A stretch of DNA of 32,000 nucleotides from Candidatus Heimdallarchaeota archaeon B3_Heim (GCA_003144275.1 NJBF01000006.1:60001-92000); one strand, 5' to 3'; numbered from the stretch's first letter, positions 2,338 to 7,210 are shown. Program-made: numbers and translations. The notes: generated by a model not told the origin, from the sequence alone.

Positions 2338-3927
2338 TCAATTCTTCCAGACTAATGCTTTCTTGTAATCACTTATTTCCTTTTCTATTTCTTCAGAGGA
2401 CCATCCTAATAGGTCTCCCATATGGTGAGCGATCTCTTCAATGCAATCCAAACCTTGTTCAAATGATAATTGAATCTGTGTTCGTCGAAATAACACATCT
2501 CGTAATGTGATTACTTTTTCATATTTAATAAAATAATTGATTTCACCGAAAATATAAGGACGATGATTTGTAATAACTTTCATTAGCTGAGGATCTTCCT
2601 TTGCTTCATCTAGCATTTTGATATAATTATCCCCATATCTCAATAAGTGTTGAGCGACTTGCTCTGACAAATTATACCGGATCATCATATTCTCACATGC
2701 GATTCTTGACCAAGCGTCCCAACCCTGACGTTTAGTTGAAACCCAGCCATTCAATGGAACCTTGTCTGTAGTAGATTTTGTTTTATCCCCGAGAATTTTC
2801 GTGATTTTATCCACCATTTCTTTAGCCATTGTTCGATAGGTGGTAAATTTTCCTCCCGCTATAGCAAAAGTATTTGGTCTAACCATCCGGATTTCATGAT
2901 TTCGTGAAACATCCGATTCTGATTTGGCAGAGTTAGAGAGAATTAAGGGGCGGAGCCCTGAATATGCACTGATGATATCTTGCTCTGTGAGAGAACCAGG
3001 AAACATAAAATTCACTGCATCGATCAGGTAATTTGCATCTTCCTTTGTTACTGGAATATAATTAAAATCTTCCCCATAATCTGTGTCCGTTGTCCCAACT
3101 AACAAATTCTCTCCAAATGGAACAATAAATATTATCCTTCCATCTTCAACAGGTATAACAACGGCATGATCTAGGTTATAAAACCGTTTTGTAATTAGGT
3201 GAACTCCCTTTGTAGGTCGAACACGCGAATGTGATGAAGGGTTGATTTGTTGAACCATCATATCCCTCCAATGACCACAGGCTAAAACAAGCGTTTTTGT
3301 TTGGACTGTAAATACATGTTTATTCGTTTGATCGCGCATCGTTACTGTATCTACTCCCTCTGGACTTTGTAAATGGAAATGTTCAGCCGAACAATAATTT
3401 AAAATATTAGCTCCTGCTTTTTCTGCAGACAACATGACTTCAAGAGTCAACCGAGCATCATCCATTTGACCATCACCATAAATTGCTGCCCCTTGAAAAT
3501 TTGTCTCACGAATAGAATTTGGTAGTAGCATCTTTGCTTTTTCAGGGCCTAGTATTTTGTGAAAAGAATAATTTCGAAAATTAGCGAAAAGATCATAGAG
3601 CCAAACTGCTAATCTCATTTTTTTCTTTGTCAGAATAGTATCAGAATGAAGAGGAACAAGAAATTTCAATGGTCGTGTTATATGTGGTGCCATTTCAAGG
3701 ATTTTTTTTCTTTCAATTGATGCTTCACGAACGAGACGAAATTCCTTTTGGCCAATATAGCGCAGTCCCGCGTGTACAAGTTTGGATGAACCACTACTTG
3801 TCCCATGACCAAAATCATCTTTCTCAACTAATGCAACTGTAAGACCTCTTAGAGCAGCATCCCGAGCGATACCTGCACCTGTTATACCCCCTCCTACAAT
3901 AAGGATATCATAGTTAGTCTTACTCAT
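2338..3927 (-). CDS. glpD: FAD-dependent glycerol-3-phosphate dehydrogenase/oxidase (GlpD/GlpA family)
   Basis: YDILIVGGGITGAGIARDAALRGL, GTSSGSSKLVHAGLRY, DGQMDDARL, PTKGVHL, SAYSGLRPL, IAGGKFTTYRTMA, and a C-terminal TLRDVLFRRT. Likely start is the ATG at 3927 (MSKTNYD); the track start at 4035 overlaps tatD. Confidence 0.92.
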   Translation of the reverse strand: MSKTNYDILIVGGGITGAGIARDAALRGLTVALVEKDDFGHGTSSGSSKLVHAGLRYIGQKEFRLVREASIERKKILEMAPHITRPLKFLVPLHSDTILTKKKMRLAVWLYDLFANFRNYSFHKILGPEKAKMLLPNSIRETNFQGAAIYGDGQMDDARLTLEVMLSAEKAGANILNYCSAEHFHLQSPEGVDTVTMRDQTNKHVFTVQTKTLVLACGHWRDMMVQQINPSSHSRVRPTKGVHLITKRFYNLDHAVVIPVEDGRIIFIVPFGENLLVGTTDTDYGEDFNYIPVTKEDANYLIDAVNFMFPGSLTEQDIISAYSGLRPLILSNSAKSESDVSRNHEIRMVRPNTFAIAGGKFTTYRTMAKEMVDKITKILGDKTKSTTDKVPLNGWVSTKRQGWDAWSRIACENMMIRYNLSEQVAQHLLRYGDNYIKMLDEAKEDPQLMKVITNHRPYIFGEINYFIKYEKVITLRDVLFRRTQIQLSFEQGLDCIEEIAHHMGDLLGWSSEEIEKEISDYKKALVWKN

Positions 3928-3991
3928 TTTTTGAATAGTGTGTTCGCGGTATTTATGATTTTTCACAGTTTCTGCCTCGATCTCTGAATTG

Positions 3992-4735
3992 CTATATATT
4001 GAAGAATTTTTCCGCATTTCGGGTCGTAATCGCATCTACTTCTTCGATAGATGAATTCTTTAGCTTCGCTAACTCTTCAACGGCATATTTTATGTTTGCT
4101 GGTTCATTACGCTTTCTTGGTATGGGACTAAGAAAAGGAGAATCAGTTTCTACCACAATATGCTCTAAAGGAGTCTTTCGTGCTATCTTGCGATGTTTCT
4201 TTCGATTAACTACTGCTGTCGGTATTGATATCATCCATCCTAAATCAATTACTCTGGTTGTTTCACTGATGTTCCCTGCAAAACAATGCATTAGAATAGG
4301 TACTTTGGCGAAACGTTCCAAAATATCAATACAATCTGATTCCGCTTTCCGAGAGTGAATGACTAATGGTTTCTCAAGAGTATTCGCAAGCTCTATCAAC
4401 TGCTTAAAGATATCTTGTTGCTTACTTCGCCATTGGGATTCATGTATCCAGTGATAATCCAGCCCAATTTCCCCAATTGCAACAATAGAGGTGTTTTGAC
4501 CTATTAATTCAATTGTCTCCTCAAATGGTATCTCTTTAATCCTCTGTGGGGCAAACCCCAGTGTGGTAAAAATAAATTCTGGATGAGTTTTAGCGAGTTG
4601 AGTGGCAAAAGTAAATTGATGGGGTTCAATTGCACTATTTATTACAGCCTGAAGACCCGTTTTTTTCGCATTATCTATTACCACATCAATATTTTTCATG
4701 AAGTCTGGTAATAAATGTGCATGTGCATCGATCAT
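3992..4735 (-). CDS. tatD: TatD family DNase/metallohydrolase
   Basis: IDAHAHL, GEIGLDY, IHSR, MHCF and ETDSPF motifs. Confidence 0.95.
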   Translation of the reverse strand: MIDAHAHLLPDFMKNIDVVIDNAKKTGLQAVINSAIEPHQFTFATQLAKTHPEFIFTTLGFAPQRIKEIPFEETIELIGQNTSIVAIGEIGLDYHWIHESQWRSKQQDIFKQLIELANTLEKPLVIHSRKAESDCIDILERFAKVPILMHCFAGNISETTRVIDLGWMISIPTAVVNRKKHRKIARKTPLEHIVVETDSPFLSPIPRKRNEPANIKYAVEELAKLKNSSIEEVDAITTRNAEKFFNI

Positions 4736-5049
4736 TACTCATACCTACGCTTTGCTAAATTGAAATTGAGTGTGCCCTTTGTTTCAAGTGTATCTGTGAA
4801 AGGAAAGCTTATCAACTTATTATTTGAGTATTTAGTGTCGATGCTGTAAGAGCATTAAATTTCCTTCGCTTTCATTCTGATATTCCCAATGCAGAACTCA
4901 ATAAGCTTAAGAATGATATGAGAGAATTGGTCATACAAGCAAAAACTGAATCTACTAAATTTCTATACTAATCGAATCTTTATAAAATCTAAAATCATCA
5001 GAGAATTAATAGACCTAATGGGTCTCTTTTCATCAATAGAGGTCTTGTC

Positions 5050-6051
5050 ATGGAAGAATCAGAGTTAAGAGAACTTATTCGTGAATATGCAATGCAGGTA
5101 CGTCTTGATCAAGGTGAAGCATCATTAACCTCGGTTCTTAAGCATGTGATAGCAGAAAACCCAGGAGTGAAAACTCAAGTAAGGTCTTCGGTTGCGCTAA
5201 TAAAAGAAGTAATCGGAGAGGTAAATTCTATGGAAGAAAACGATCTGAGTGAGAGCTCGAGCGGAATTTCTGTTGATGAAGCAAGCGAATATGAAATGTT
5301 GGTTAAATTAGTAAGTCAAAAGTTGTTAGATTCTCCTGAATTGAAAAAAGACATTAAAAGCCTGATGATTTATGGATCCTACGCAAAAAGATTACACGTT
5401 GTCGGAGAGAGTGATATCAATTTTTTGATTGTTCTCACTGCGGAAAAAGACTCTGAAAAAGCGATTGAAACCATATCTAATATAGCAGAAGAAATTATCA
5501 CACCCGAACTTGCGCATATTTTTGACTTAATGATTTTAAAAGAGGATGATATTTCCGAGTTGGAAAAATTCGGTCCTGATTTCACACATATTCATGCTCT
5601 CTATGCTAATGTAGGGGAACTCATCTATGGTGAAAATTATTTCCGTGATCTTGAATTTACTGATGATCAAGTCCGAGATGCTGCAAAATTGTTAATAGCA
5701 GAAGCAATTTCTCAAATTGATGAGATCATCAAAACTGCAAAAGAAGAAGATTTACCTGAAGATGAATTAGATTACTTGATAGGAGCATCTGTTATTGATA
5801 TTGCCTTCGGTCTTTCTTGTCATAAAGCGGGAATTAAATCTGTATCAATGGATCTCGTGAAACCTGATATCCATGAAGAAATCATTGAGGTTTGGGGACC
5901 TGAATCTGAATTTTCTATTTATTATCCTCTATTAGAAAAAGCCCATGCTTTTAAACTTGGTATTAAACTTCCCGAATCCGATGATTTTATGGCAACTTGT
6001 ATAGAATTTATTAAAAAAGTTATTGAATATACTGGTTTGCATGAAGCATAA
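5050..6051 (+). CDS. Multi-domain nucleotidyltransferase: GluRS-N-terminus-like domain + pol-beta-fold NTase + C-terminal helical (HEPN/KNTase-like) domain
   Basis: NTase motif YGSYAK...ESDINFLIV with a downstream FDLMIL strand and the MNT-type end GELIYGE. Residues 1-62 resemble the archaeal GluRS N-terminus. GAGGT SD-like motif upstream of the ATG. Confidence 0.75.
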   Translation: MEESELRELIREYAMQVRLDQGEASLTSVLKHVIAENPGVKTQVRSSVALIKEVIGEVNSMEENDLSESSSGISVDEASEYEMLVKLVSQKLLDSPELKKDIKSLMIYGSYAKRLHVVGESDINFLIVLTAEKDSEKAIETISNIAEEIITPELAHIFDLMILKEDDISELEKFGPDFTHIHALYANVGELIYGENYFRDLEFTDDQVRDAAKLLIAEAISQIDEIIKTAKEEDLPEDELDYLIGASVIDIAFGLSCHKAGIKSVSMDLVKPDIHEEIIEVWGPESEFSIYYPLLEKAHAFKLGIKLPESDDFMATCIEFIKKVIEYTGLHEA

Positions 6052-6059
6052 ACAATCTG

Positions 6060-6656
6060 TTACTTGCCAATATTCGCAAGGAATCCTTCTCGCTCTAGAT
6101 AGGGTTTCAAAAAGACAAATTCACTCATATAACGTTCTAGTTCCTTTAGAGCATAGGAATGAAACGAATTTGCTTGTTCATGAGTAATCCAATGTTTTTT
6201 TGAGTATAATGAAGATTGATTCATAACATCAATATGGTCTGCAACTCTAGCAATTCTAAATTCAGCACTGTTTTGATTTCCTATGAGCTCTAGTAACGAA
6301 GCTCCAATTTCGGGATTCAATTGGTCGACTATACGTTTTAATGCCCCTTCTTCAATATTTTGAAGAAATTCAGAAATTTCATTTGAAGCTGACAAATTAT
6401 AAAGGCTTTTATCTATATCCATATACTCAGATTCAGGGAAATCGTGAAAAAGCGCATGTAATACGGCTTTTTCAGTGTTAATGAGCGTTTTTATTGCTTG
6501 ATTCTTTCTTAAGATATTTTCCTCAAAACAAAAGAAGTATGTAAGAATACTAACAGCCCAAGAATGATCTGCTAGAGATTCAATGTCACATTTTGGAACT
6601 CCAGCTCGGATCCAGCCAGTACGCAGCAAAGATTTCATTAATTCAATGTTCTTCAT
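6060..6656 (-). CDS. HD-domain 5'-deoxynucleotidase, HDDC2/YfbR family
   Basis: LLRTGW...ESLADHSW, ALFHDFPE...DI, VADHID. Likely start is the ATG at 6656 (track TTG 6665). Confidence 0.9.
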   Translation of the reverse strand: MKNIELMKSLLRTGWIRAGVPKCDIESLADHSWAVSILTYFFCFEENILRKNQAIKTLINTEKAVLHALFHDFPESEYMDIDKSLYNLSASNEISEFLQNIEEGALKRIVDQLNPEIGASLLELIGNQNSAEFRIARVADHIDVMNQSSLYSKKHWITHEQANSFHSYALKELERYMSEFVFLKPYLEREGFLANIGK

Positions 6657-6769
6657 CAAAATCAACTTATTACACCATAAAAATTAATGATACGCATACA
6701 GTCGAATTCATGTAGAAAATCCAAGTAGGGTTTTATCCCTTCCCCCCTTGGGAATCGGAGATAAAAATG

Positions 6770-7060
6770 TCATGCTTTCATATAGACAGTTAATCGTCTA
6801 TTTGAAAACGCTTTTTTCAAGATTTTTTTCTCTTCCAAATCGGTTAATAGTTGCTTTGCCGCAGAAACGCGGATATCATTACGCGCAGCTATTTCCTGAG
6901 GAGTAACAACGACAGATTTCCGTTTTTCATATTCAGTGGTTAGATCTTTCAGCATAGCGTTATATTCGTCACCTACGAGTAATGATCGTTCATAACTAGT
7001 ATACTCGAAGACTTTACCCCATCTTCGTTTTTTACGTACCCTTTTATCAGATATGCTCAT
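6770..7060 (-). CDS. rps25e: 30S ribosomal protein S25e (eS25)
   Basis: Basic N-terminus with KKRRWGK and a winged helix VTPQEIAARNDIRVSAAKQLLTDLEEKKILK...RRLTVY matching the eS25 pattern. Likely start is the ATG at 7060. Confidence 0.82.
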   Translation of the reverse strand: MSISDKRVRKKRRWGKVFEYTSYERSLLVGDEYNAMLKDLTTEYEKRKSVVVTPQEIAARNDIRVSAAKQLLTDLEEKKILKKAFSNRRLTVYMKA

Positions 7061-7210
7061 CTTAATCGACTCCAATCAGCCTACTTGACATGTACTGTTC
7101 TTTTCTCCTTTGATATATGAAGGGTTCGATTGTATTGCCTAATTGTTTTTAAAATGCAGCTGTTTAATTCCTATATACTTTGTGATAAAGGAACTAAACG
7201 TGAGTAATAT

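Follow-up and report, generated by a model that had tools for sequence, protein, structure and literature searches.

A synthetase-type YqeY-like domain joined to a degenerate nucleotidyltransferase core in Hodarchaeales archaea

The N-terminal region of archaeal non-discriminating glutamyl-tRNA synthetase (GluRS) is named the YQEY domain and corresponds to residues 1-85 of the M. thermautotrophicus enzyme, PDB 3AII (PMC2978374). Two further reports describe YqeY and GatB-tail modules as tRNA binders in D. radiodurans GlnRS (PMC1865053) and GatB (PMC2811023). Deinococcus GlnRS, with its C-terminal YqeY domain (PMC1865053), and eukaryotic GlnRS, with its N-terminal domain (PMC3333875), show the same kind of event as the one described here, in which a small helical tRNA-sensor module is placed on a different catalytic scaffold. 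Two other groups of proteins resemble the remainder of the protein considered in this work. ANT(9), AadA and ANT(4'), which have the KNTase architecture, combine a Pol-beta nucleotidyltransferase (NTase) with a helical bundle, and the type VII MNT-HEPN toxin-antitoxin systems and fused MNT-HEPN proteins (PMC7641770, PMC13000451) set an MNT-like NTase beside a HEPN-like bundle, as does the present protein within one polypeptide.

The protein is encoded in a stretch of 32,000 nucleotides from Candidatus Heimdallarchaeota archaeon B3_Heim (GCA_003144275.1 NJBF01000006.1:60001-92000), referred to below as the window. Like archaeal GluRS, it begins with a homologous four-helix domain of ~65 aa followed by a flexible acidic/charged linker, but this domain sits on an NTase-like core rather than on a class I synthetase body, and it is acidic and free of the lysines (GKA, KAVMGK) that the GluRS domain keeps. 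Whereas the known YqeY and GatB-tail modules are hosted by Glx-tRNA enzymes, the host scaffold here is not such an enzyme, and the similarity signals to these modules lie below significance. The protein is distinguished from ANT(9), AadA and ANT(4') by an identity of 14-17%, an Asn at the second carboxylate, the extra N-terminal domain and an archaeal housekeeping context, and from the MNT-HEPN systems by the lack of an Rx4-6H motif, a degenerate NTase site, and vertical inheritance in fixed synteny, with neither mobility nor a defence island. Full-text literature searches found no description of the three-domain architecture, in line with an earlier reading of this DNA from its sequence alone (the sequence-only reading), which knew of no NTase carrying such an N-terminal domain. 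New in this work are the class-wide distribution of the architecture, its two-domain ancestor and single origin, the further decay of the catalytic triad in distant orthologs, and the Glx-tRNA background.

Architecture of the three-domain protein

The gene (5050..6051, + strand) encodes 333 aa plus a stop codon, arranged as a YqeY-like N-terminal domain (N-domain), an acidic linker, a degenerate Pol-beta NTase and a HEPN-like helical domain. Its start codon is ATG, with a ribosome-binding-like GAGGT 6 nt upstream (5039..5043, +) as read from the sequence, and the start at 5050 is confirmed by the shared N-terminus of the homologs, the same initial Met being common to all 27 that were aligned. 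Rfam and tRNA scans of the window found nothing. Among 5.8 billion proteins searched, 79 homologs reached E ≤ 1e-55; most are full length and 55-89% identical, and all come from Hodarchaeales or Heimdallarchaeota metagenome-assembled genomes; the fullest annotation among them is 'nucleotidyltransferase domain-containing'. An exhaustive HMMER search of 1.84 billion cluster representatives matched just 33 clusters. These comprise the close family, a set of full-length relatives that are 29-33% identical, and a third group of shorter proteins (~240-280 aa) covering residues 78-330 only. Together these searches show a real gene under selection and a family that, on their evidence, is small and confined to one lineage.

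By profile comparison, the N-domain (aa 1-62; 5050..5235, +) is homologous to the N-terminal YqeY-like appended domain of archaeal GluRS/GlnRS. Searched alone, residues 1-62 (to about 67) align with positions 3-67 of the archaeal GluRS model NF003169 at E 2.9e-7, and TIGR00463 matches the domain at E 6.6e-4. For profile-profile alignment we used the N-termini of 31 Asgard GluRS genes gathered by genome search; hhalign aligned the N-domains of the NTase-like proteins to them with a probability of 97-98% and E-values of 2.5e-11 to 6.5e-14. An HMM made from the same N-domains matched 70 of 73 GluRS and GlnRS N-termini (best E 4e-15), and phmmer found a GluRS fragment (P0111, E 4e-4) among 1.8 billion proteins. 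The sequence-only reading had recognized a GluRS-like pattern in residues 1-62 while allowing that no profile match to GluRS-N or YqeY might exist; the NF003169 and hhalign results bear the pattern out. In the AlphaFold2 model four helices span residues 3-59, and the domain modelled alone reached a pLDDT of 91.9. BLASTP between the N-domain and the N-terminus of GluRS from the same genome gave zero alignment. The N-domain of that GluRS is among the most divergent (13.5 bits with the N-domain HMM); only profile methods brought out the relationship.

Structural comparison of the N-domain alone was less informative. Foldseek against the PDB returned nothing at E ≤ 0.001, and the top VIA-align score, Z 6.5, was to unrelated small helical proteins. 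A direct relationship to YqeY or to the GatB tail is weakly indicated by three converging signals, all below significance: the Pfam GatB_Yqey model (PF02637) scored 13.5 bits (E 0.068, positions 73-128 of 148; cut-off 27 bits), the C. jejuni YqeY tail (8xje_A residues 94-146) superposed with an rmsd of 1.6 Å over 47 residues at Z 4.9, in the noise range, and the N-terminal domain of human GlnRS (4ye6_A residues 117-182) gave Z 4.8, in the noise range of small helical domains. The GluRS lysines in G-K-A...K-A-V-M-G-K are replaced in the NTase-like protein by G-E-A...T-S-V-L-K, and tRNA binding by the N-domain may be weakened as a result. The mean net charge of the N-domain is -5.6 in the close family, against +0.9 for the Asgard GluRS N-domains. 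The glutamyl-tRNA synthetase model covers the protein at positions 3-76 only, and the class I catalytic domain with HIGH/KMSKS is absent; by this comparison the protein is not itself a glutamyl-tRNA synthetase, the real gltX lying elsewhere (G000:C19).

The acidic linker (aa 63-79; 5236..5286, +), Ser/Glu-rich as the sequence-only reading had described it, varies in length and sequence across the homolog alignment and is predicted to be flexible: in the AlphaFold2 model, built from 27 homologs with a mean pLDDT of 81.5, values drop below 50 at residues 69-78. Profile and structure matches assign residues 80-204 (5287..5661, +) to the alpha/beta fold of Pol-beta-type nucleotidyltransferases. 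PF18765 (Polbeta) matched at E 5e-6, scoring 24.4 bits with the whole protein and 26.9 with the isolated domain against a cut-off of 26.9; PF01909 (NTP_transf_2) reached 16-18 bits (cut-off 21), and the NTase domain matched the MNT structure 9xbd_E at E 5.5e-4. The fold is found again in ANT(9), AadA, MNT, HI0073 and others at Z 6-15. Residues 78-333 superposed best on ANT(9) (6sxj_A; Z 14.9, rmsd 3.3 over 216 residues), then on ANT-3,9 (7uy4_B; Z 13.4), with lesser matches to ANT(4'), AadA, LinB and HalB. Residues 205-333 (5662..6048, +) form a HEPN-like helical bundle of the KNTase/AadA C-domain type, matching several HEPN structures at Z 8-9. The Rx4-6H motif is absent from these residues, whose sole Arg, R209, has no His 4-6 residues after it; conserved instead are K271 and an A-H-x-x-K/R-L-G motif (298-304). 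The MNT-like NTase and the helical C-terminal domain of ~125 aa without an RNase motif (HEPN bundle, Z about 9) both agree with the sequence-only reading. The protein belongs to none of the closest named families by score: NCBIfam ANT_9 gave 20.3-22.8 bits, far under its cut-off of 340, MntA (NF047752) 13.6-15.4 bits against 60, and the archaeal CCA-enzyme model (TIGR03671) 12.6-14.8 bits against 281 (E 0.009-0.04).

Distribution, synteny and origin

In a survey of 83 genomes of the class, 20 of the 21 genomes of the window's genus had the full-length three-domain form, as did the two genomes of f22, a sister family within this order, at 29% identity; the remaining families of the class have the two-domain form only, which matches residues ~79-327. 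The fusion is genuine and not a chimeric artefact. Far from being unique to this assembly, an outcome that the sequence-only reading had kept in view, it is conserved across an order of Asgard archaea. The neighborhood is the same beside orthologs of 29-33% identity, with TatD upstream, a YfbR-like HD hydrolase tail-to-tail at a distance of a few bases, and rpS25e just beyond, and the NTase-like gene is single-copy, vertically inherited and syntenic among these housekeeping genes (rpS25e, TatD). In the window, the HD phosphohydrolase gene (6060..6665, -) ends 8 nt from the stop codon and is followed by rpS25e (6770-7075, -). The tail-to-tail pairing, in which the two genes sometimes overlap by 9 nt, is kept beside the orthologs of 29-33% identity; given the convergent orientation, the two genes are not co-transcribed.

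Upstream of the gene lies a gene-free gap of 314 nt (window 4736-5049) with no Rfam family or tRNA in it, a position at which relatives carry an extra gene for a PALP enzyme or SHMT. The TatD ORF (3992-4735, -) overlaps by 44 nt the listed start of a glycerol-3-phosphate-dehydrogenase-like ORF (2338-4035, -), the true start of which is, because of this overlap, probably further in. The PADLOC QatD model matches the TatD protein as well (E 3e-32), probably through a similarity common to TatD proteins in general.

The three-domain proteins form one clade in a tree of the core with the N-domain omitted (SH-aLRT 99) and again in a tree of the N-domain only (SH-aLRT 92). On the strength of this agreement, the fusion was formed once, from a two-domain paralog present across the class. 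The N-domain tree does not separate GluRS from GlnRS as the donor. Nearly all genomes of the genus contain the two-domain paralog beside the three-domain protein. That of the window's genome is P0082 (G000:C61:34672-35418, L006:1492-2289), a protein of 265 aa with 26% identity to the three-domain protein over residues 97-327. P0082 shares the NTase and helical core but has neither N-domain nor linker, keeps a canonical S-D-L-D site and is less acidic (pI 5.1). A Pfam search of P0082 returned zero matches, and it belongs to a class-wide family of uncharacterised ANT/KNTase-like proteins. The positions of the two-domain paralog near GlnRS in one genome (G026) and near gatDE in the window's own genome were judged coincidental.

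Catalytic site, charge and the Glx-tRNA background

The NTase motif reads G109-S110 ... S121-D122-I123-N124. The nucleotide-binding G-S motif (5374..5379, +) is nearly invariant, with G109 in 110 of 110 relatives and S110 in 109. At the [DE]x[DE] metal site, D122-I123-N124 (5413..5421, +), Asn replaces the second carboxylate, as the sequence-only reading had noticed; N124 falls at this position when the protein is aligned with a solved MNT (SDID) and with the two-domain paralogs (SDxD). D159 (5524..5526, +), the third carboxylate of the NTase triad, is kept. We tabulated these sites in 110 sequences, comprising 76 close homologs, 20 distant three-domain proteins and 14 two-domain paralogs. The second site is Asn in all 76 close and all 20 distant proteins, hence in 96 of 96 three-domain proteins tabulated; the two-domain paralogs have Asp in 11 cases and Asn in three, and on the core tree this D-to-N change arose at least twice among them. 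The first carboxylate is Asp in every close homolog (76/76) and every two-domain paralog (14/14), and is Asn in eight of the 20 distant orthologs (P0090 and the P0093 cluster). The third is Asp in 75 of 76 close homologs and 14 of 14 two-domain paralogs, and Asn in two of the 20 distant orthologs (P0089 and P0094). E120 was considered as a compensating carboxylate and ruled out, being Gln or Val in distant orthologs.

The positional orthologs that read N-x-N...D or D-x-N...N indicate that the function shared by the family is independent of the canonical two-metal centre; judged from these alignments, such a centre cannot underlie a function common to the three-domain orthologs. The core is most likely a decommissioned or strongly altered nucleotidyltransferase. 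K113, K/R271, K/R302 and G304 are widely retained across relatives, and residues 107-125, the active-site loop, are the best-conserved segment within the genus. Asn is able to ligate Mg2+. With this capacity, the conserved loop and the retention of D122 and D159 in the genus, residual or unusual catalysis is possible, and the recurrence of the D-to-N change among two-domain paralogs suggests that Asn at the second site may be tolerated in an active enzyme.

The protein has a pI of 4.45 and a net charge of -38, confirming its description as strongly acidic. None of the other long ORFs in the window (23 in all) is as acidic: it carries -11.4 charges per 100 residues, and the next -4.5. GluRS of the same genome has a pI of 9.15 and a net charge of +16. 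A charge of -38 argues against a broad RNA-binding surface, and it would fit basic partners at least as well as direct RNA binding.

The genome carries enzymes for both routes to Gln-tRNA. An intact canonical gltX, a point which the sequence-only reading had raised, is present on contig C19. GlnRS is encoded on contig C76 (L004:1378-3147; TIGR00440, 687 bits) and has a Lys-rich tail and no N-terminal YqeY-like domain; the GlnRS proteins of the genus end in a poly-Lys tail and best match a 'GlnRS/YqeY fusion' model, minus its YqeY part. GlnRS proteins of sister families have the N-terminal YqeY-like domain, as in eukaryotic GlnRS. As this difference between the sister families and the window's genus shows, the YqeY-like module was repeatedly gained and lost among the Glx-tRNA enzymes of the class, with the NTase-like protein as one more recipient. 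GlnRS loci of the class include, besides that on contig C76 of the window's genome (G000), L052:3398-5353 and L060-L088. A 2022 review states that all archaea lack GlnRS (PMC9499178), while a 2024 preprint mentions GlnRS of this archaeal class beside cox genes. A gatD-gatE operon (contig C61; L110:2206-5560, minus strand) coexists with GlnRS in the genome; the last 45-70 residues of GatE are matched by neither the Pfam GatB_Yqey nor the GatE models, and this tail appears degenerate. On the same contig, L110:5712-6812 encodes a protein of 366 aa in which a single histone fold at the N-terminus (CBFD_NFYB_HMF, E 5.5e-8) precedes a long stretch that is uncharacterised.

Within the genus, GlnRS was found in 11 of 21 genomes and the NTase-like gene in 20 of 21; in family f22, GlnRS was found in neither genome and the NTase-like gene in 2 of 2. 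The NTase-like gene does not co-vary with GlnRS. We did not adopt the idea that the N-domain moved from GlnRS to complement an N-domain-less GlnRS in trans, given this missing co-occurrence; the Lys-rich tail that GlnRS itself has and the failure of the tree to single out a donor type also speak against it. Four genomes of the genus (G111, G122, G116 and G119; L090, L091, L092 and L094) encode a third GluRS/GlnRS-family paralog of ~580 aa with the HIGH region TRLPPEPSGYLHIGHG. Its N-domain groups with GlnRS N-domains, and it was not found in the window's own genome.

Candidate functions and their meaning

The data establish the three-domain architecture, the homology of its domains, their joining in one event, the distribution of the family and the degeneration of its triad. 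In the course of events that we propose, a duplicate of the class-wide two-domain protein (Pol-beta NTase plus HEPN-like domain, in the ANT/KNTase architecture) would have gained a YqeY-like appended domain in one event, of the type carried N-terminally by archaeal GluRS and Heimdallarchaeial GlnRS. The three-domain proteins all have Asn at the second carboxylate and have kept the G-S motif and the pocket-facing basic residues K113, K/R271 and K/R302. The core would then no longer be a classical two-metal nucleotidyltransferase; it would more likely serve as a sensor or clamp for a nucleotide, or for a 3' end resembling one, and would be connected through the N-domain to tRNA(Glu/Gln) or to the basic enzymes acting on these tRNAs, namely GluRS, GlnRS and GatDE. 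A putative connection to tRNA(Glx) or to the synthetase/amidotransferase machinery is reasonable given the identity of the N-domain. The reading that we favor, though we put it a little short of an even chance, is that of a lineage-specific, housekeeping-type Hodarchaeales protein, with a putative non-catalytic or weakly catalytic nucleotide-binding module linked through the N-domain to tRNA(Glx) or its enzymes.

The sequence-only reading had proposed an enzyme that nucleotidylates tRNA, and an active nucleotidyltransferase with a non-canonical metal site (D122, N124, D159), directed by the YqeY-like domain to tRNA(Glx) for, e.g., 3'-end modification, would account for the retention of G-S, D122 and D159 in close homologs (D159 in 75/76), for the strong conservation of the active-site loop and for an N-domain of the tRNA-sensor type. 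Nucleotidyltransferases acting on tRNA ends are known, e.g., the MenT toxins (PMC10435456). That proposal is weakened by Asn at the second carboxylate in 96/96 proteins, by the loss of the first or third carboxylate in distant orthologs and by the net charge of -38, and the archaeal CCA-enzyme model matched only at E 0.009-0.04. It is mainly the positional orthologs with N-x-N...D or D-x-N...N, whose shared function has no need of the carboxylates, that move us away from an enzyme, and we consider this explanation doubtful. The charge lends itself to another explanation, that of an acidic protein-docking or nucleic-acid-mimicking scaffold, which would bind basic partners and have neither a nucleotide nor an RNA as ligand. 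The protein stands out among the long ORFs of the window (-11.4 versus -4.5 charges per 100 residues), GluRS has a pI of 9.15 and the GlnRS of the genus a poly-Lys tail, and almost every genome of the genus also has the two-domain paralog; conceivable partners are GluRS, Lys-tailed GlnRS, ribosomal proteins or the active two-domain paralog, the last in a pseudoenzyme-enzyme pair. A scaffold of this kind is nevertheless unlikely in our estimate, as the G-S motif and the pocket lysines are kept over deep divergence, suggesting that a ligand pocket is still used.

The best structural matches, ANT(9), AadA and ANT(4'), with HalB of Hailong also among them, and weak PADLOC PDC-S09 and cyclase matches at the NTase motif would suit an adenylyltransferase acting on small molecules (antibiotic-type), or else a toxin-antitoxin or defence module of the fused MNT-HEPN kind. 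Against such a role stand the family scores (ANT_9 20-23 bits versus 340; MntA 14-15 versus 60), the missing Rx4-6H motif, the degenerate catalytic site and the single-copy, vertical and syntenic character of a gene set among rpS25e and TatD, which together make it highly improbable. To return to the favored nucleotide-binding module linked to tRNA(Glx) or its enzymes, a bolder form of it would make the protein a cofactor of the Glx-tRNA machinery, free-standing and without catalysis, in the archaea most closely related to eukaryotes. It would be the functional counterpart there of eukaryotic synthetase-associated proteins like Arc1p or the AIMPs, and its synthetase-derived YqeY domain and nucleotide-sensing pseudo-nucleotidyltransferase would couple ATP or tRNA status to GluRS, GlnRS or GatDE. 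We regard this as a long shot. If true, its setting would be a lineage that has both GlnRS and GatDE and in which the YqeY domain has moved about between such enzymes.

The appended domains of aminoacyl-tRNA synthetases, like their non-enzymatic cofactors, are seen for the most part as elaborations of eukaryotes, and Hodarchaeales are the archaeal group placed nearest to eukaryotes. In this group, an appended domain of synthetases has moved onto an unrelated and apparently decommissioned enzyme fold, and the combination has long been fixed. Binding to tRNA(Glx) or to the Glx-tRNA enzymes, if it occurs, would make the protein an early case of synthetase-associated factors acting in trans, and would offer a way into how these archaea manage two routes to Gln-tRNA side by side, a direct one (GlnRS) and an indirect one (GluRS plus GatDE). 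Were it merely a lineage-specific ligand binder, it would still be a clean natural case of the passage from a nucleotidyltransferase to a pseudoenzyme.
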